A stretch of DNA of 64,000 nucleotides from Candidatus Wolfebacteria bacterium RIFOXYD12_FULL_48_21 (GCA_001793945.1 MGIW01000006.1:202239-266238), one strand, 5' to 3'. Shown: positions 12,170-64,000, counted from the first letter of the stretch. The notes: generated by a model from the letters alone, not told the origin. Made by a program: numbers and translations.

Positions 12170-13894
12170 ATGACCCAAGACGAAGCATTTGCAATCTTAA
12201 AGACCGGACGAAATGTGTTTTTGACAGGAGAGCCGGGGAGTGGCAAGTCCCACATGGTCAATCGCTATGTGGAGTATTTGCGGTCCTGCGGGGTTGAACC
12301 GTCCATTACAGCGTCCACGGGCATTGCCGCCACGCACATCGGCGGCATGACGATCCACTCGTGGAGCGGCATCGGGGTACGGACCCGGCTGACCGACCAC
12401 GACCTTGAATTGATGCTCGACAAGGACCGGCTGGTCAAGCGGCTTCGGGCCGCGCGGGTGTTGATCATCGATGAAGTTTCCATGCTTTCGGGCGACACAC
12501 TGGCGGTGGTGGAGCAGGTTTGTCGCGTCTTGCGCGACTCCATAGAGCCCTTTGGAGGGCTTCAGGTGGTCCTGGTGGGCGACTTTTTTCAACTGCCGCC
12601 CATTATGCCAAAAGCCGACCAAGAGCGTGTAAAAACGATTTCTCTCGATGGGGAAGATCAGTGGTCACCCTTTGCATTCATGGGTACGGCGTGGGCAAAA
12701 GCGGACCCGACCATCTGCTATCTGACCGAACAGCATCGGCAGGAAGACACAGAGTTTTTAAAGGCACTTTCGGCCATCCGTCGCGGGGAGGTTACCGACG
12801 AGGTGCGCGAATGTTTTGCGGGCCGGCGTGTGGAGCCCGCCGTTGCGGACGATCATACCAAACTATATACGCACAATTTCGCGGTCGATAAGCTCAACGA
12901 TGCGCGGCTCGCAAAACTGCCGGGCGAGCGGCGCGACTTCGCGATGAAGAGCGAAGGCGCCCCGACGATCGTGGAGGGGTTGAAGCGTGGATGCTTGTCG
13001 CCCGAAACACTTTCGTTGAAATTGGGGGCGAAGGTCATGTTCACCAAAAACAGCGTCGAGGGAAAGTTCGTCAACGGCACCATCGGCGAGGTGGTCGGAT
13101 TTTCGCCCGTTACGGGCTATCCGCAGATCACGATGCACAACGGCAAGACGATCGAACCCGAGTTGGGCGAATGGAGTATCTATGACGGCATGAAGATGCT
13201 TGGCATGATCAAACAAATTCCGCTTCGCCTTGCCTGGGCCATCACGGTCCACAAGAGCCAAGGCATGTCGCTCGATACTGCAATCATGGATCTTTCACAA
13301 GCGTTTGAATACGGACAGGGGTATGTCGCGCTATCACGCGTGCGTACGCTCGCGGGGTTATATCTGTTGGGGTATAACGAACGGGCACTCGAAGTGCATC
13401 CCGATGTGTTTGCGAAGGATATCCAGTTCCGCGCCGCGTCCGAAAAGGCCCGGTATGACTTCGCCGCACTCGGCGAAGAACAAATCGCCGATCTGCAACT
13501 GCAGTTCATCAACACCATCGGCGGAGCCGTGGGCATGGGCATGCAGGCGCCTGCGCCCAAGGTTTCGACCTACGACGCAACGGCCGAGCTGGTCGCGCAG
13601 AAATTGTCGGTTGCCGACATGGCAGAAAAGCGTGGCGTAACCGAAGCCACGATCATCACGCATTTAGAAAAGCTGGTTGCCAATGGAACCCTCGATCCTG
13701 CAGCCGATTTGGAATACCTAAAGCCCGAACGCCGCCGGTTCGTGACCATGCAGGCAGCACTCGAAAAGACCTATAAAAAGAAGGGGAGCATGCTATTAAC
13801 CCCCGCCCAGTCCCTCCTCGGCCCCGGGTTTACCTTTGAGGAATTGCGGGTTGCGAGGCTGTTTTTGGGGAAAACCGAAGATCCGTCATCCTGA
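12170..13894 (+). CDS. Pif1/RecD2-family ATP-dependent DNA helicase with C-terminal HTH_40-type domain
   Basis: Walker A GEPGSGKSH, Walker B LIIDEVSML, motif QHRQ; C-terminal LSVADMAEKRGVTEATIITHLEKLV helix-turn-helix module. Confidence 0.75.
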   Translation: MTQDEAFAILKTGRNVFLTGEPGSGKSHMVNRYVEYLRSCGVEPSITASTGIAATHIGGMTIHSWSGIGVRTRLTDHDLELMLDKDRLVKRLRAARVLIIDEVSMLSGDTLAVVEQVCRVLRDSIEPFGGLQVVLVGDFFQLPPIMPKADQERVKTISLDGEDQWSPFAFMGTAWAKADPTICYLTEQHRQEDTEFLKALSAIRRGEVTDEVRECFAGRRVEPAVADDHTKLYTHNFAVDKLNDARLAKLPGERRDFAMKSEGAPTIVEGLKRGCLSPETLSLKLGAKVMFTKNSVEGKFVNGTIGEVVGFSPVTGYPQITMHNGKTIEPELGEWSIYDGMKMLGMIKQIPLRLAWAITVHKSQGMSLDTAIMDLSQAFEYGQGYVALSRVRTLAGLYLLGYNERALEVHPDVFAKDIQFRAASEKARYDFAALGEEQIADLQLQFINTIGGAVGMGMQAPAPKVSTYDATAELVAQKLSVADMAEKRGVTEATIITHLEKLVANGTLDPAADLEYLKPERRRFVTMQAALEKTYKKKGSMLLTPAQSLLGPGFTFEELRVARLFLGKTEDPSS

Positions 13895-14170
13895 ACTTGT
13901 TTCAGGATCTGGGCGGGGGTCATTCCCGCGAAGGCGGGAATCCAGTATCCCCGCATTGTCATTCCGGCCTCCGAGCCGGAATCCAGTATTTGTGTCATTC
14001 CCGTGAAAACGGGAATCCAGTATCCCCGTATTGTCATACCGGCCCGTTCGACAGGCTCAGGGTAAAACTCCGGCCGGTATCCAGCGCATTGTCATTCCTG
14101 CAAAAGCAGGAATCTACTTCGCATTTTTCGCATTGTCATTCCGGCCTCCGAGCCGGAATCCATCCCCACT
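13895..14170. repeat. tandem array of about seven MITE-like hairpin units
   Basis: Units gtcattcc-[cgcgaaggcg / ggcctccgagcc / cgtgaaaacg / tgcaaaagca]-ggaatccag separated by tatccccgcatt-like linkers; preceded by tcatcctgaacttgtttcaggat hairpin. Confidence 0.8.
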
Positions 14171-14291
14171 CCATAACCGTGAAAACATGCCATTGTACGG
14201 CCACTTTTCACGGTTATGGACGCAAAACCGTGAATGATCGTTTTCGTGACGTTAGTAAAATGGTTGATGCTTTCCAATCCCTCGTACTAAC

Positions 14292-14321
14292 TTGACAGTT
14301 TATTCATGTGTACGCTATTAT
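14292..14321 (+). promoter_or_regulatory. sigma-70-like promoter TTGACA-18-TATTAT upstream of Phd/RelE pair
   Basis: TTGACA 14292-14297, TATTAT 14316-14321, overlapping gtac...gtac palindrome. Confidence 0.5.
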
Positions 14322-14687: not shown

Positions 14688-14883
14688 TAAGAAGATTAGA
14701 ATGCGGGTGATTGTAACCTTGCAGGAATTAAGCAAAGATCCTTTTGCCGGGAAAAAGTTGCAAGGAGAACACGCAGGCCAGTGGTCGGTACGCGCATGGC
14801 CATATCGGGTCATCTACAGGATAAACAAAGGCGAGCTCGTTGTACTTGTTATTCGCATCGCTCATCGGCAAGGAGCGTATTAA
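14632..14883 (+). CDS. RelE/ParE-family toxin
   Basis: MQYRIILPKSVQKELEKL...YRVIYRINKGELVVLVIRIAHRQ. Confidence 0.65.
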   Translation: MQYRIILPKSVQKELEKLDKKIRMRVIVTLQELSKDPFAGKKLQGEHAGQWSVRAWPYRVIYRINKGELVVLVIRIAHRQGAY

Positions 14884-15150
14884 AAACCCCCCCGCATTGT
14901 CATTCCCGCCCATTCGTCCGCCGGCTGGCGGATCAGGGTAAACTCCGGCGGGAATCCGTGGCCTGTGTCATTCCCGTGAAAACGGGAATCCAGTATCCCC
15001 GCATTGTCATCCCGTGCTCCGACACGGGATCCAGATCATGTGTCATTCCCGTGAAAACGGGAATCCAGTATCCCCGCATTGTCATTCCGGACTTGATCCG
15101 GAATCCAGTATTTGTGTCATTCCCGTGAAAACGGGAATCCAGAGTAGAGG
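14884..15150. repeat. tandem array of MITE-like hairpin units
   Basis: gtcattcccgtgaaaacgggaatccagtatccccgcattgtcat... repeated; includes ccgccggctggcgg core hairpin. Confidence 0.8.
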
Positions 15151-15199: not shown

Positions 15200-15275
15200 A
15201 ACAGATAAGATCCCTCATCCCTGCGGGATTTTTGGTTGGTTTATAAATGGGGTGGGATTTGGTAAGATTGAGTTG
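15200..15275 (+). promoter_or_regulatory. conserved terminator+leader module (copy b): atccctgcgggatttttggttggtttataaatggggtgggatttggtaagattgagttg
   Basis: Hairpin atccc-tgc-gggat plus T-run, followed by a conserved 40-nt tail; related copies at 19725-19770, 20345-20400, 21265-21325 and a partial one at 11965-11995. Confidence 0.6.
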
Positions 15276-17596: not shown

Positions 17597-17717
17597 AAAT
17601 AGACGGATATTTTCTCCAAGGAAAACCGCAGCGAGATATTGGCTGTAGTAAAGGGGAAGGGAAATATGACCACCGAGATTGCCCTGATAAAAATTCTGCG
17701 GGAGGAGAAAATAACCG

Positions 17718-17987
17718 GTTACCGACATGGCAGAAAAGCGTGGCGTAACCGAAACCACGATCATCGCCCATTTGGAAAAGCTGGTTGCCAATGGAACCCT
17801 CGATCCTGCAGCCGATTTGGAATACCTAAAGCCCGAACGCCGACGATTTGTAACTATGCAAGCCGCGCTTGAAAAGACCTACAAAAAGAAGGGGAGCATG
17901 CTATTAACCCCCGCCCAGGCACTCCTTGGGCCTAGTTTTACATTTGAGGAGTTGAGGGTGGCACGGTTGTTTTTAATTACCCCGTGA
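17718..17987 (+). pseudogene. duplicated 3' fragment of the Pif1-like helicase gene (HTH_40 tail), displaced copy
   Basis: MAEKRGVTETTIIAHLEKLVANGTLDPAADLEYLKPERRRFVTMQAALEKTYKKKGSMLLTPAQALLGPSFTFEELRVARLFL is about 95% identical to helicase residues encoded at 13611-13880; lacks the helicase core. Confidence 0.75.
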
Positions 17988-19709: not shown

Positions 19710-19779
19710 GCTTAATAGTCACTCCTGCGGGATTTTTGGTTGGTTTCTAAATAAGGTGGAATTTGGTAAAATTTTAAAA

Positions 19780-20280: not shown

Positions 20281-20420
20281 GCTTGACTACATATCCTTAT
20301 TTGGTAAATCAAGTTGTCGATAGATTTTTAAAAATACAGCAGAGATAACCCTGATCCTTTATAATTTATAAATGGGTCAGAATTTGGTAAGATTGAGTTG
20401 AAATGGGGTGTAATTATTAA

Positions 20421-21257: not shown

Positions 21258-21363
21258 CTTGTAAAAATCCCGCATTCCTGCGTGATTTTTAGTTGGTTTA
21301 TAAATAGGGTGGAATTTGGTAAGCTTGGGAGTAATAAAGGTTACCCATGAAATTATTGGAATT

Positions 21364-24978: not shown

Positions 24979-25560
24979 ATGAACCTCAAACCCCTCATAC
25001 AACTGACCATTGCAATTGCAATAGCCGAACTCGCGGGGATCATTGGGTCATTTTTTACTGTGGGTGCTATAGATACTTGGTATGCGGGGATCGTTAAGCC
25101 TGCGTGGAATCCGCCCGCTTGGGTGTTTGGGCCGGTGTGGGTGGTGTTGTATGCGATGATGGGGGTTGCGGTTTGGTTGGTGTGGAGGAAGATGGATTCC
25201 CGGCGCATTGCAAGGAGCGGGGAGATCCTGAAACAAGTTCAGGATGACAATGCAAGCGGGAATGACAAACTAATAAAGGCAGCACTCTGGGTTTTTGGGG
25301 TGCAGTTGGGTTTGAACGCCCTGTGGTCCACCATCTTCTTTGGCTTGCACAGCCCGGGATGGGCTTTTGTAGAGATCGTTCTGTTGTGGGCCGCCATCGT
25401 CGGTACGATCGGCGTGTTTTGGCGCATCTCGAAGCCTGCGGCGTTGCTGTTGGTCCCTTACATTTTGTGGGTCAGTTTTGCAGGGTATTTGAACTACACC
25501 ATTTGGGATTTGAACAAGATCGACGAGCAAATGGTGTTTTGCACTGCCGATGCCATGTAA
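24979..25560 (+). CDS. tspO: TspO/MBR tryptophan-rich sensory protein, carrying an in-frame MITE-derived insertion
   Basis: KPAWNPPAWVFGPVWVVLYAMMG...WSTIFFG...LVPYILWVSFAGYLN; the inserted segment SRRIARSGEILKQVQDDNASGNDKLIK is encoded by atcctgaaacaagttcaggatgacaatgcaagcgggaatgacaa. Confidence 0.8.
   Translation: MNLKPLIQLTIAIAIAELAGIIGSFFTVGAIDTWYAGIVKPAWNPPAWVFGPVWVVLYAMMGVAVWLVWRKMDSRRIARSGEILKQVQDDNASGNDKLIKAALWVFGVQLGLNALWSTIFFGLHSPGWAFVEIVLLWAAIVGTIGVFWRISKPAALLLVPYILWVSFAGYLNYTIWDLNKIDEQMVFCTADAM
25222..25268 (+). mobile_element. MITE-family element inserted in-frame within tspO
   Basis: gatcctgaaacaagttcaggatgacaatgcaagcgggaatgacaa matches the intergenic copies at 30130-30175 and 13895-13925. 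Confidence 0.7.
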
Positions 25561-25711
25561 TGCCCGGACGGAACATTCGTAGGCCGCACCGGCCCAAACT
25601 GCGAGTTCCAATGCCCTTGAATTCCCCCCCCCATTTTTCTCATCTAACCCATCTAATCTAATTCATCCAACCCACCCAACCAACCCATTCAACCCTACCC
25701 CACAAAAATGC

Positions 25712-25750
25712 TTAATAATATTGCTATAGCAATATTATTAAGCGTTTTCT
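25712..25750. repeat. perfect palindrome gcttaataatattgctatagcaatattattaagc (copy 1)
   Basis: 17-bp arms; identical copy at 26446-26480; the two bracket the 25789-26418 gene. Confidence 0.8.
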
Positions 25751-25788: not shown

Positions 25789-26418
25789 ATGAAAAAAAGG
25801 GTGGATGGCAAACAAAGGCGAATCAGTGGGGCTTCGAGGAGGGATAAGGCCAAGGATCTGACGGGGAAGATTCTTCGGTTCTTGCTAATTAGTGGAGGCA
25901 TCGCTATTGCGATGACTTCGCCGTATTTTGTTACCAAAGTCGTCTACCCTGCGCTTGGCAAGTTGTTGTCCGGGGATGATTCGCTTAGCGATCCGGAGAA
26001 GAAGGCTCAGCTGCGCAATACATTTTACTATCTTCGGAGTAAGGGCTTTATTGAATTTGAGGATAGGAATGGGCAGGTGTTCATTTCTTTGACCGGAGAA
26101 GGCAAACGGATGGCCGGTAAGTATCAGATCAACGACTTAAAGATCAGGAAAGATAAGAAGTGGGATAAAAAGTGGCGCATATTGATCTTTGATATCGCCG
26201 AAAAGCATAAGATCAAGCGGGAGGCGCTGCGGGGCAAATTAAGAGAGCTGGGGTTTTATCAGTTGCAGAAAAGCGTGTGGGTGTATCCGTATGATTTTGA
26301 GCGGGAGGCCGTGCTTCTGCGGGATTTTTTTGGCCTTGCCGTGAAAGAAATGACGATCATTGCGGAGGCGAAGATCGAGGAGGATGACAACCTTCGGAAA
26401 TTTTTTGATGTTGCGTAA
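25789..26418 (+). CDS. PaaX-like regulator family protein (tentative)
   Basis: WDKKWRILIFDIAEKHKIKREALRGKLRELGFYQLQKSVWVYP resembles the PaaX C-terminal W-x-W-x5-D-[IL]-PE...R...LR..L...GF..LQ.SVW segment; N-terminus contains a hydrophobic helix. Confidence 0.35.
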   Translation: MKKRVDGKQRRISGASRRDKAKDLTGKILRFLLISGGIAIAMTSPYFVTKVVYPALGKLLSGDDSLSDPEKKAQLRNTFYYLRSKGFIEFEDRNGQVFISLTGEGKRMAGKYQINDLKIRKDKKWDKKWRILIFDIAEKHKIKREALRGKLRELGFYQLQKSVWVYPYDFEREAVLLRDFFGLAVKEMTIIAEAKIEEDDNLRKFFDVA

Positions 26419-26445
26419 TATTTATAGTGTACGCAAGGAATTAAA

Positions 26446-26480
26446 AACGCTTAATATTATTGCTATAGCAATATTATTAA
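26446..26480. repeat. perfect palindrome gcttaatattattgctatagcaatattattaagc (copy 2)
   Basis: See copy 1. Confidence 0.8.
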
Positions 26481-26614
26481 GCGTTTTTGTAGGGTGCGAT
26501 AACGATGCGATTTGTGTGGTGTATGTGATATACTTGATGTAGTTGCCCGTTGGATGCTGGTTGGCAGATGGGGTAGGGGTTATGGTTTGGGAATTTTAAA
26601 ATAGTAGATTCGTT

Positions 26615-27025
26615 ATGGCGTCATCTATGCAAGAAATGATTAATGTTCCTTTAGTTGGTTCCGCTCCGTGCGGGGCGCCGCTTTTTGCGGAAGAGAATGT
26701 TGAGAAAATGATACCCGTGGCAAAGGAAAAGTTGCAGGGAGGTTTGCAGTATTTCATATTGCGCGCAACCGGGGATTCTATGGATGCGGCGGGGATTAAC
26801 GACGGTGATCTTATTTTGTGCAAGCAAAAGCTGACGGCGCGGGAGAACGATCTCGTCGTCGCGCTGATCGATGATGAAGCTACGGTTAAGGAGTTTCATC
26901 GGGAGGGAGATAAAATTGTGCTTAAACCGCGCTCGACAAATCCGGAGCATCAGCCGCGCTATCTTACCGAAGGAGTGCAGATACAGGGGATCGTGCAGGA
27001 GGTTGTGCGTCCACTTGAGAACTGA
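26615..27025 (+). CDS. UmuD-like S24 peptidase (LexA/UmuD C-terminal domain only, no HTH)
   Basis: Candidate Cys-Gly cleavage site (SAPCGAPLF), catalytic Ser in ATGDSMDAAGINDGD, Lys in DEATVKEF. Confidence 0.65.
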   Translation: MASSMQEMINVPLVGSAPCGAPLFAEENVEKMIPVAKEKLQGGLQYFILRATGDSMDAAGINDGDLILCKQKLTARENDLVVALIDDEATVKEFHREGDKIVLKPRSTNPEHQPRYLTEGVQIQGIVQEVVRPLEN

Positions 27026-27039
27026 TAGAGGGGATACGG

Positions 27040-27230
27040 TATAGGGTATAGGGTATATGGTATAGGGTATGGGAGGGGAGAGGAGAGGAGAGGAGGTATA
27101 AAGTATAAAGTATACGGTATATGGTTGGTATGGGAGAGGAGAGGAGGTATAAAGTATAAAGTATACGGTATATGGTATAGGGTATGGGAGGGGGATTTCA
27201 AATTTCAAATTTCAAATTTCAAATTAAAAT
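27040..27230. repeat. tandem low-complexity repeats (GGTATAGGGTAT-type, GGAGAGGAGAGGAGG, and (GATTTCAAAT)4)
   Basis: Direct duplication ggtataaagtataaagtatacggtatatggt x2; four GATTTCAAAT repeats at about 27198-27230. Confidence 0.8.
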
Positions 27231-29382: not shown

Positions 29383-30090
29383 ATGAACAAGCTTATTTTT
29401 CTTGATACGGAGACGACGGGGAATGATGTGACCAGGGACCGGCTGTGTCAGGTGTGCTACAAAACGACTGATGGCATACGCACGGAGTTTTTCAAGCCGC
29501 CGATTCCGATTTCCGTGGAATCGATGAGCATTACGCACATTACCAATAAAATGGTCGCGGACAAGGCTCCGTTTGCGGGAAGCGCGATGGCGGGCGAGCT
29601 GGGGGCGTTGTTGAACGAAGGTATTTTGGTGGCGCATAATGCGGTGTTTGACAAGGCAATACTCGAAGCGGAGGGGCTTGCTGTACCAAAATACATTTGC
29701 ACATTGCGTGTTGCGCGCGCGCTTGATCCGGAAGGGGTTTTGCCGCAGTACAAACTGCAGTTTTTGCGGTATTACCTCGACCTTGATGTCGATGCGCATG
29801 CGCACGATGCGGAGGGCGATGTGAAGGTTTTAGTGGCGGTGTTTGATCGGCAATTTGCAAAACTGAAGCAGGAAGGGTTGAGCGATGATGAAGTCGTCGA
29901 AAAGATGCTGCATATTTCTACTACGCCGATGCTGTTCAAGAAGTTCACATTTGGAAAGCATATCGGCAAGGATATTGCCGAAGTGGCAAAAATCGACAAA
30001 GGATATTTACAGTGGCTCTTGGGGCAAAAAATGGCAGAGGCCATTCCGGACGAGGATTGGGTGCATACGCTGAATACATATTTGAAATAA
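29383..30090 (+). CDS. DEDDh 3'-5' exonuclease (DnaQ-like) with exonuclease-X-type C-terminal domain
   Basis: Exo I FLDTETTG, Exo II VAHNAVFDKAIL, Exo III HDAEGD; C-terminal KKFTFGKHIGKDIAEVAKIDKGYLQWLL. Confidence 0.8.
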   Translation: MNKLIFLDTETTGNDVTRDRLCQVCYKTTDGIRTEFFKPPIPISVESMSITHITNKMVADKAPFAGSAMAGELGALLNEGILVAHNAVFDKAILEAEGLAVPKYICTLRVARALDPEGVLPQYKLQFLRYYLDLDVDAHAHDAEGDVKVLVAVFDRQFAKLKQEGLSDDEVVEKMLHISTTPMLFKKFTFGKHIGKDIAEVAKIDKGYLQWLLGQKMAEAIPDEDWVHTLNTYLK

Positions 30091-30099
30091 TAAAAGGAG

Positions 30100-30175
30100 T
30101 GGATTCCGGCCTCCGCCGGAATGACAATACGGGAATTCAGATCCTGAAACAAGTTCAGGATGACAATTTATCCAC
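30100..30175. mobile_element. MITE-like element
   Basis: tggattccggcctccgccggaatgacaatacgggaattcagatcctgaaacaagttcaggatgacaat. Confidence 0.7.
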
Positions 30176-55413: not shown

Positions 55414-55494
55414 TGCATGCATTGTGAAAACTAAAACAGGAAGCGTAGAAAACTTTGCATTACGAAGCTCATTTTGCTGCTTTAAAATAGCGCT

Positions 55495-55580
55495 GTCATC
55501 CTGAATTTATTTCAGGATCTCTTGGTGATATCAAACAGATTCTGAATCCGCCGGCTGGCGGATCAGAATGACAAATCGAG
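55495..55580. mobile_element. MITE-like element
   Basis: gctgtcatcctgaatttatttcaggatctcttggtgatatcaaacagattctgaatccgccggctggcggatcagaatgacaaatcg. Confidence 0.7.
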
Positions 55581-62962: not shown

Positions 62963-64000
62963 TATGTCAAATCTTCTCGAACAGGTAAAGCAATTTCCGG
63001 ATAGCCCCGGAGTTTATCGATTCCTTGATGCAAAAGGGGGTATTTTGTATATCGGCAGGGCTACATCGCTGCGCAAGCGGGTGGGGAATTATTTTACCAA
63101 GCGCATCGATGCGCGCATTGCGGAAATGGTATCGCTTGCACGGGATGTGCTGTATGAGCAGACCGATACTGTATTGGAAGCAGTCATCCTTGAGGCTAAC
63201 CTTATAAAAAAGCATTGGCCGAAATACAATGTAAAGGACAAGGACAATCGGTCATTTCTTTATATCGTAATTCCGAAAGCGGGGATAGATTCCCGCCGGA
63301 GTTTACCCCGTGCTGTGACACGGGGCCCGCAATTTCGGAATGACAGAGGGGGCTCGGCCGATTATCCGAAACCGCTCATCGTGCGGCATCGTGAATTGGA
63401 AAAGTTTTCCGCGGTCAAGGCGGATATCTTTGGACCGTATCAAAGCGTTACATTGATCAAAAACGCATTGAAGATCATTCGCAGAATATTTCCGTACGGC
63501 ACCTGTACGCCCCATAGTGCCTCTGTAAAGTCGCCGGCGGGCGACCGCGTTGCAGGTAAGCCCTGCTTTGATTATCAGATCGGATTGTGCCCGGGTGCAT
63601 GTGTTGGGGCTATTTCAAAAAAAGAGTATCAAAAAAATATTCGCAACATTGTACTCCTGTTGTCGGGTAAAAAGGAGCTGCTGCTCAAGCGGCTTGCCAA
63701 GGCGCATCCTGAAAAGGCGGTGAGCTTGAAGCATATTCAGGATGTTTCATTGATCACGCGGGACGAACTGGTGCGCAGACAGGTGGACGCGCATCGCATC
63801 GAAGGATATGACATATCGCATTTGACCGGTAAGGAAACATATGGCTCGATGGTCGTGTTCACCGATGGTGAACCAGACAAGGAGGCCTATCGGTTGTTTG
63901 CCATAAAAGAAGCCGTGGCGGGCGACGATTTGCATGCACTCGAGGAAATGCTGGTGCGACGATTTCGCCACGCAGAATGGGACATGCCCGATTTGGTCAT
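62963..64000 (+). CDS. uvrC: excinuclease ABC subunit C (N-terminal part, runs off window), with in-frame MITE insertion
   Basis: Own translation: MSNLLEQVKQFPDSPGVYRFLDAKGGILYIGRATSLRKRVGNYF (GIY-YIG)...EANLIKKHWPKYNV..., Cys-rich region, then continuous reading frame to the window end; not in the ORF track because there is no in-window stop. Confidence 0.85.
63286..63352 (+). mobile_element. MITE-family element inserted in-frame within uvrC
   Basis: gatagattcccgccggagtttaccccgtgctgtgacacggggcccgcaatttcggaatgacag closely matches the intergenic copy at 27232-27300; encodes IDSRRSLPRAVTRGPQFRNDR inside UvrC. Confidence 0.7.

Follow-up and report, generated by a model that had tools for sequence, protein, structure and literature searches.

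Repetitive extragenic palindromic (REP) elements of the CGTC-tagged class were defined by Di Nocera, De Gregorio and Rocco (2013, BMC Genomics 14:522; PMC3733652) by a tag CGTC (or TGTC/CCTC), an 8-9-bp stem with A-T at positions 1-2, a loop that has 4 nt in family 1 and 5 nt in families 2-4, and an unpaired CCA tail. These elements have no associated transposase and were reported from five phyla, the Candidate Phyla Radiation (CPR, Patescibacteria) not being among them (PMC3733652). The same study equated CGTC-1 with Neisseria dRS3 and with the Rickettsia palindromic element (RPE) RPE-6, and CGTC-4 with RPE-4 (the original RPE reports are its references 13 and 14). In its Additional file 3, intragenic copies are given with the peptides that they encode, among them DSRLRGND, DSRFRGND, VIPAKAGI and CHSRESGNP for CGTC-1, including a copy in Rickettsia conorii uvrC, and RHSELVSGS for CGTC-2 in Sulfurovum. 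Here we describe an in-frame insert assembled from such units in tspO, the gene for a TspO/MBR membrane protein, within a 64-kb stretch (the window) of Candidatus Wolfebacteria bacterium RIFOXYD12_FULL_48_21, a metagenome-assembled genome (MAG) of the CPR/Patescibacteria.

The repeats of the window share with the published CGTC-1 and CGTC-2 REPs (PMC3733652) a multi-copy, mainly extragenic distribution near the 3′ ends of open reading frames (ORFs), occasional in-frame intragenic copies (in that study often in the DNA-repair genes uvrA, uvrB and uvrC), and the same encoded peptides DSRLRGND, VIPAKAGI, CHSRESGNP and RHSELVSGS. They differ from them in the Wolfebacteria host, in the target gene, as tspO is not among the published targets, and in the CGTC-2 tail, which is CTC or CTG here and CCA there; neither a nested three-tier composite nor differences at a single site between close relatives are described in that work (PMC3733652). 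The RPEs of Rickettsia offer a second parallel, being palindromes inserted in frame into apparently functional genes, where they add a short hydrophilic segment, and their CGTC-1 type (DSRFRGND) is identical; the present host, however, is a free-living or episymbiotic CPR bacterium rather than an obligate intracellular alphaproteobacterium, and its insert combines two REP families. The long RPE-1 type, of ~100-150 bp, is not involved here. Neisseria dRS3, a target of recombination or phage integration, has the same hairpin core (ATTCCC-N8-GGGAAT) as the repeats here and forms mosaic arrays of units and linkers resembling those at 13885-14160 and 14899-15139 of the window; the Neisseria arrays are intergenic. 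REPIN/RAYT systems (PMC3116915, PMC5581495) also consist of short palindromes that form intragenomic populations, often as inverted dimers, yet they are GTAG-type and depend on a domesticated Y1 transposase, whereas the tag here is TGTC and the window ORFs scanned contain no RAYT gene. Rickettsia and other bacteria already provide cases of in-frame REP insertion, and the present case is a new example rather than a new phenomenon; what is new is the phylum of the host, the gene affected, the nesting of the composite and the turnover at one site among close relatives.

We put at about 85% the probability that the extra TspO loop is passenger DNA, made of REP modules that a permissive loop has tolerated and that recombination or gene conversion between REP copies, or slippage, has since remodelled. 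The host gene is the following:

24979-25560, plus strand: tspO ORF carrying the insert, 193 aa (ORF list; Pfam PF03073)

Pfam TspO_MBR (PF03073) covers residues 12-176 of its product (E=6.9e-53; 178.7 bits against a cut-off of 24), PDB TSPO/TspO chains match it down to E=9e-27, and the invariant TspO residues are kept in the protein alignment; the product is 100% identical to a protein recorded for Candidatus Wolfebacteria bacterium RIFOXYD12_FULL_48_21. The PDB alignments split into two blocks (query 10-72 and 102/103-179), the gap between them holding ~30 query residues against ~10 in mouse TSPO. Between two conserved anchor motifs, the segment joining transmembrane helices 2 and 3 (TM2-TM3) measures 46 residues here and 25 in 62 of 115 homologues. 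Together with the four palindrome copies in the window, this length difference upholds the reading of the preliminary description, which had taken the extra loop for an in-frame copy of a dispersed repeat. Its statement that TspO is longer than usual also holds, since the commonest length among the 120 best homologues, from CPR, is 158 aa; its attribution of the whole excess to the loop does not, because the loop supplies ~21 of the ~35 extra residues and the other 14 form a C-terminal extension, common to many relatives and unrelated to the repeat in the protein alignment.

The insert has a nested layout, whose parts are:

25193-25267, plus strand: the whole palindromic insert, a composite of REP-derived parts, 75 nt long, whose 25 codons read (M)DSRRIARSGEILKQVQDDNASGND
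25196-25202, plus strand: outer left arm ATTCCCG, a CGTC-1-type half, with the tail TGG before it at 25193-25195
25205-25210, plus strand: middle left arm GCATTG, pairing with CAATGC at 25248-25253 in both the RNA and the DNA fold
25224-25249, plus strand: intact CGTC-2-type REP unit GATCCTGAA-ACAAG-TTCAGGAT-GACA, with four copies in the window
25257-25267, plus strand: outer right arm CGGGAAT (25257-25263) followed by the tag GACA, earlier described as the 'ggaatgacaa end'

The outer left arm pairs with 25257-25263 in the RNA and DNA folds alike, and its sequence ATTCCCG is the same as in intergenic units of the window such as that at 13919-13942; CGCATTG/CAATGCG is the usual linker beside the tag in the intergenic arrays. 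At the centre, the inner hairpin ATCCTGAA/TTCAGGAT (25225-25232 with 25238-25245) forms an 8-bp stem around the 5-nt loop ACAAG and is followed by the tag GACA, so that the unit reads TGTC-ATCCTGAA-cttgt-TTCAGGAT-CTC on the minus strand. By this arrangement, the insert is one intact CGTC-2 unit nested between two CGTC-1-type halves. The 45-mer quoted earlier lies at 25224-25268 and does contain both hallmark motifs, the hairpin and the 'ggaatgacaa end'; the start at 25205 has to be moved, as the repeat-derived part begins at 25193 and includes the left arm TGGATTCCCG, missed before, giving a span of 25193-25267, and the hairpin loop, put at 3 nt, has 5 nt above its 8-bp stem. A pattern with a 4-nt loop did not match this hairpin, since its loop is of 5 nt. 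The intergenic CGTC-1 plus CGTC-2 pairs at 13885-13942 and 30102-30164 were considered as donors and rejected because their linkers mismatch; no donor was identified in the window.

The 75 nt are a multiple of three and contain no stop, adding a net 21 aa to an ORF that is otherwise conserved, and the insert is missing from basal-loop homologues. Only one of its three same-strand frames is stop-free, and this is the frame in which tspO reads it. The three-tier stem, whose arms measure only 6-8 bp, has a predicted RNA fold of -25.1 kcal/mol (z -2.8 against shuffles) and a predicted DNA fold of -16.7 kcal/mol (z -4.2), none of 200 shuffles being as stable.

The tspO copy belongs to a family dispersed over the window. 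A 25-27-nt palindrome with the 25-mer core GATCCTGAAACAAGTTCAGGATGAC occurs in four copies, at 13885-13911 (minus strand), 25222-25249 (plus, in tspO), 30138-30164 (plus) and 55494-55521 (minus, with 2 mismatches), and GGAATGACAA is found 27 times at one mismatch or fewer against 5.4 expected, a count that none of 100 shuffles reached. A structural census of the window yielded 29 units in 13 loci, 26 of them scorable for anatomy. Read from the tag side, 24 of these 26 carry TGTC, among them the inner unit of tspO, with CGTC and GGTC once each. Stems are of 8 bp in 21 units and 9 bp in 2, all starting with AT; loops are of 4 nt in 11 units, 5 nt in 5 (the tspO inner unit included) and 6 nt in 3, and several long-loop variants reach 18-36 nt. 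The CCA tail is present in 17 of the 26, all with ATTCC-, ATACC- or ATCCC-type stems, and the four CGTC-2-type units, including that in tspO, have CTC or CTG in its place. Relatives of TspO and UvrC contain DSRLRGND and DSRFRGND, and HPELVSGS is read when the insert is translated in the reverse frame, in agreement with the published peptides. Because tag, stem, loop and encoded peptides agree with PMC3733652, the window repeat is a CGTC-tagged REP. Rfam has no family for the insert or for any repeat unit: around the insert there were only chance-level matches, and at gathering score the whole window yielded five tRNAs only.

This anatomy bears directly on the term MITE (a transposase-dependent miniature inverted-repeat element) used in the preliminary description. 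The family is indeed multi-copy, short, palindromic and at times composite, as a MITE would be. Its units, however, measure 24-28 nt rather than 70-300 bp with 15-30-bp terminal inverted repeats (PMC3733652); they are hairpins in which an unpaired TGTC tag is joined by a tail, CCA in most units, as in CGTC REPs, without long terminal inverted repeats. No target-site duplication is seen at tspO, nor at uvrC when the empty site (L126) is compared with filled ones (L127 and the window), and no transposase occurs in the window ORFs scanned. We regard a MITE as highly improbable.

Comparison among relatives exposed how changeable the loop is. Outside the loop, tspO DNA is 92-94% identical to that of three relatives, without indels, the flanks being colinear and the frame undisturbed. 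The loop segment itself measures 111 nt in the window against 60, 117 and 126 nt in the three relatives, at an alignment identity of 37-58%. One unit, GATTCCGTGTCGAAGCACGGAATGACA, occupies the loop of P0004; that of P0003 holds two units, that of P0002 a degenerate and an intact one, and that of P0005 (locus L130) reads GATTCCGGCTCAAAGGCCGGAATGACA. Repeat-free relatives, which the preliminary description had singled out as the decisive comparison, lack the loop: P0006 (65% identical) has an empty site with the DNA tggagcagagggctggaacgaaaagaggtgaag and the protein sequence SRGLERKEVK, and the 158-aa TspO proteins have the native loop KKGLDRRDVK. Such a series also speaks against an assembly artefact, in which a repeat was collapsed or chimerically joined within tspO. 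Repeats are classic sites of misassembly and the genome is a MAG, but the identical 193-aa protein is present on 17 contigs from several sources, independent assemblies of relatives hold intact in-frame REP inserts at the same site, and the flanks are colinear without frame disruption, making an artefact scarcely credible.

Our preferred account, passenger modules in a permissive loop, can be laid out as a sequence of steps. CGTC-tagged REP modules would have colonised a short, probably cytoplasmic, loop-coding segment of tspO. The insert would persist owing to a length that is a multiple of three, its sole stop-free same-strand frame, a hydrophilic peptide and its position at a turn, where it may lengthen two helices and a coil while the five-helix core stays intact. 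The first insertion would then have been followed by gain, loss and replacement of REP modules at the tspO site, and such continuing turnover would account for the differing loop contents of close relatives. The likeliest route is recombination or gene conversion with the many other genomic REP copies, or slippage promoted by the hairpin.

The same observations can be read as signs of function, with the insert acting as an mRNA hairpin in translation or stability, or as an extended cytoplasmic loop that serves the protein. Shuffled sequences fold less stably than the hairpin (z -2.8 for RNA, -4.2 for DNA), expanded loops are common, occurring in ~50 of 115 close TspO homologues, and the stem of P0004 differs from that of P0005 by paired changes (ATTCCGTG...CACGGAAT versus ATTCCGGC...GCCGGAAT) that keep it complementary. 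Stem variants close to those of P0004 and P0005 exist, however, among the intergenic units of the window, so the paired changes are standard intergenic REP variants, simply explained by replacement of one REP copy by another and expected of it. Loop sequence and length vary even among relatives that are 92-94% identical elsewhere, identical units are intergenic here and in the genomes of unrelated phyla, and most relatives have no insert. A functional insert is accordingly improbable in our view.

Expansion of this loop is not confined to CGTC REPs. At least five unrelated classes of loop peptide were distinguished (DS...GND/GMT, EYDKLTLSEVEG, SSYAKATDGQ, KQHSHILENVRMLR and DPSTRLR). Detected tspO loci numbered 572. 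Across 75 metagenomic loci, basal loop DNA folds at 0 to -7 kcal/mol, and the longer expanded loops are mostly palindromes of about -18 to -44 kcal/mol. Hairpins have therefore accumulated repeatedly in the TM2-TM3 loop of CPR TspO. Loci L135, L168 and L136 display different loop palindromes, for example CATTCTCACATTCT-tg-AGAATGTGAGAATG (-23.5 kcal/mol) and, in nested form, one at -44 kcal/mol.

The loop lies where an addition might be borne. In an AlphaFold2 model built on a 30-sequence alignment, the transmembrane helices 4-28, 47-82, 94-120, 126-150 and 159-181 are kept, and the insert lengthens TM2 and TM3 in the model and forms a coil at 83-93 (mean predicted local distance difference test score, pLDDT, ~60 for residues 81-90). 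On the question raised earlier of whether the insert falls in a loop, the model places it, with moderate confidence (mean pLDDT 73.5 overall, ~60 in the coil), at the TM2-TM3 turn. Lysines and arginines number 10 on the membrane side of the TM2-3 and TM4-5 loops and 2 on the other side. According to the positive-inside rule the side rich in these residues faces the cytoplasm, so the TM2-TM3 loop is probably cytoplasmic, a topology that fits a position outside the cell for the Cys-rich tail described below and for the Germane/Gmad2 domains fused to the TspO C-terminus in relatives.

The distribution of the family bears on selection. Only 2 of the 13 repeat loci are intragenic, in a window of which 83% lies in long ORFs (P=2.6e-7 under random placement); the other 11 are intergenic. 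Since repeats are depleted from coding DNA and the insert is read in its only stop-free same-strand frame, the best account of in-frame copies is that they are the few that purifying selection has let survive in permissive loops. The earlier alternative that the element is selected for frame-neutral length is not supported, as unit lengths of 27, 28 or 29 nt are not intrinsically multiples of three and so few loci are intragenic.

Several points weigh against the passenger account. Native residues beside the insert are partly replaced, SGNDKLIK standing here where relatives have GERRIIK, and for this reason the exact original insertion event cannot be reconstructed. The AlphaFold2 model, from its alignment of 30 sequences, is only of moderate quality (mean pLDDT 73.5; predicted template-modelling score, pTM, 0.63). 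The neutrality of the insert is an assumption of ours. Pfam found no transposase, recombinase or Y1 domain that could move the units in the ~30 window ORFs scanned, which adjoin the repeat loci. Finally, a premature stop that deprives TspO of its C-terminal tail leaves room for relaxed selection on tspO.

The second in-frame copy announced in the preliminary description was located in uvrC:

63270-63344, plus strand: second in-frame REP insert, in uvrC, encoding ...IPKAGIDSRRSLPRAVTRGPQFRNDRGG...; the ORF runs from 62964 past the window end (64000)

This ORF is uvrC by TIGR00194 (E=1.7e-66) and by PDB matches to the GIY-YIG domain. The spacing between PKYNV and FGPY is 65 aa here and 39 aa in 81 of 119 relatives, the insert being a nested CGTC-1 REP that adds 26 aa directly after the GIY-YIG domain. 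Three states can be ordered: an empty site in P0123 (attccaaaaactgattatccg); a simple state in P0122, in which a 48-nt module with a plain CGTC-1 hairpin adds 15 aa and encodes DSRFRGND; and the nested state of the window, in which the 48-nt module has received 36 nt within the hairpin loop and lost 3 nt, for another 11 aa. The added 36-nt segment has a 21-nt stretch in common with the long-loop unit at 14899-14955. By these alignments uvrC shows the same kind of stepwise history, from empty through simple to nested. The two genes offer a clean natural series (empty, simple, nested/replaced) for the entry of palindromes into coding DNA and their later remodelling of it, and the finding adds the Candidate Phyla Radiation, and the loop of a membrane protein, to the range of in-frame REP/RPE insertion.

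Some observations raise the possibility, to our minds an unlikely one, that the tspO loop is a preferred landing site whose native DNA resembles REP ends and into which template switching or gene conversion copies units in fixed orientation at microhomologies. In many CPR tspO genes the native loop reads aaGGACTGGATcgcaGGGATGtAAAA, and REP ends read CTGGAT...GGGAATGACAAA; the empty locus L129 has GGATTCGATCGCAGGGATGTAAAA where the filled locus L128 has CTGGATTCCCGCCTGCGCGGGAATGACAAA; and the uvrC insert abuts native GTAATTCCGAAA (V-I-P-K), similar to the REP left arm. Every CGTC-type insert in TspO and UvrC begins with DS, pointing to one orientation, although a common orientation may stem from shared ancestry within clades. 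On a neighbour-joining tree of TspO, CGTC-type inserts stand beside GL(D/E) or GFD native loops, with none in the large GW(E/D) group, but this tree rests on ~150 residues and carries no support values; Fitch counts on it, 8 changes for the CGTC-type state and 36 for all classes, are unreliable upper bounds. Moreover, CTGGAT and GGATG may simply follow from the L-D and D-V codons, and the loop also houses no fewer than four further, unrelated hairpin types, a pattern that structural permissiveness explains more easily than sequence targeting does.

The core of the family reaches far beyond this genome. The exact 25-mer GATCCTGAAACAAGTTCAGGATGAC is present in more than 119 genome loci of at least 10 phyla, against a chance expectation of ~0.001 matches in 596 Gb by our own arithmetic. 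Its hosts include CPR lineages, Sphingomonadales, Bacteroidota, Treponema, Sulfurovaceae, Bacillota, Dependentiae, Elusimicrobia, Gastranaerophilaceae, Rickettsiaceae and Balneolaceae. Flanks are unrelated between loci (L007-L125), and sister hairpins often lie nearby, for example gtcatgctgaacttgtttcagcatc or gtcaccccgaatttatttcggggtc. The host range of the 25-mer is therefore wider than published, and the exact 25-mer is kept across phyla without a known mobilising enzyme. One speculative reading, which we hold to be rather doubtful, is that CGTC REPs are copied in CPR without any transposase, by hairpin- or microhomology-templated gene conversion into native sequence that resembles REP ends; CTGGAT...GGGATG in tspO and GTAATTCC in uvrC may be such mimics. 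Were this so, certain loop segments would be recurrent landing pads that give rise to hypervariable protein loops, and the letter-perfect 25-mer over at least 10 phyla would be due to a universal host factor that recognises it, not to horizontal spread.

Literature searches with raw sequence strings matched only primer-containing papers, a search for 'Candidate Phyla Radiation' with REP gave only an incidental mention, and PMC6006769 names the CGTC paper in its reference list only. For annotation, the peptides DSRLRGND, ILKQVQDD, EYDKLTLSEVEG and SSYAKATDGQ in CPR proteins are repeat-derived and should not be read as functional motifs.

At its 3′ end, tspO differs from its relatives by one further feature:

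25558-25560, plus strand: TAA stop of tspO, which is CAA or CAG in four relatives (DNA and protein alignments)

This stop removes the conserved Cys-rich tail QCPDGTFVGRTGPNCEFQCP, whose codons are intact at 25561-25620. In these 60 nt 3′ of the TAA, the frame still runs on through the Cys-rich tail CPDGTFVGRTGPNCEFQCP to the ancestral stop. By its sequence context, the TAA at 25558 looks like a recent nonsense mutation, or is possibly read through. Directly downstream of tspO, a gene with a PaaX_M domain (25789-26418) is flanked by two near-perfect 52-nt palindromes at 25697-25748 and 26444-26495, which are 94% complementary to each other and may be operator sites or cassette boundaries.

The main intergenic loci of the REP family in the window are:

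13885-14160, minus strand: intergenic array, 7 REP units belonging to the family of the tspO insert
14899-15139, minus strand: second intergenic array, 6 REP units, with 36- and 39-nt periods
30102-30164, plus strand: intergenic CGTC-1 plus CGTC-2 pair, downstream of an RNase_T-family exonuclease gene (29383-30090)
55495-55519, minus strand: intergenic CGTC-2 unit with the loop variant tttat, upstream of uvrB

In the first array, the CGTC-2 unit at 13885-13909 supplies the last codons (…EDPSS) and the TGA stop of a PIF1-like helicase ORF (12170-13894). The array periods (39, 36, 39, 58, 44 and 39, 36, 39, 35) are enriched in multiples of three, but they are not independent observations, because duplication of a 75-nt double unit gave rise to the arrays. 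A CRISPR reading of the arrays at 13.9 and 15.0 kb was rejected, the 'spacers' being repeat units themselves. Two ORFs, at 13897-14295 (132 aa, …CHSREGGNPVSPHCHSGLRAGIQ…) and 14781-15128 (115 aa, …VIPVKTGIQYPRIVIP…), translate REP arrays and are almost certainly spurious products of reading through them.

Other repeats in the window are of different kinds. A 266-nt direct repeat (13601-13866 and 17709-17974; 88% identical, 4108 nt apart), the first copy of which is the 3′ end of the helicase gene, encloses two REP arrays together with genes for a Phd/YefM antitoxin, a MazG-like protein and a C-5 cytosine methylase; possibly, the region between the copies is an island that integrated at this 3′ end. 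A 36-64-nt repeat (…CCTGCGGGATTTTTGGTTGGTTTATAAATGGGGTGGGATTTGGTAAGATTG) recurs at 15207-15275, 19711-19779, 20365-20400 and 21264-21332, placed just upstream of four genes in succession (MazG-like, unknown, DUF4357 and an 815-aa ORF), and may be a shared promoter or a cassette junction of a defence-type island. Low-complexity 14-nt tandem repeats occupy two intergenic stretches, 2679-2806 (ATCTCCCATCTCCC…) and 27010-27193 (GGTATAGGGTATAG…).

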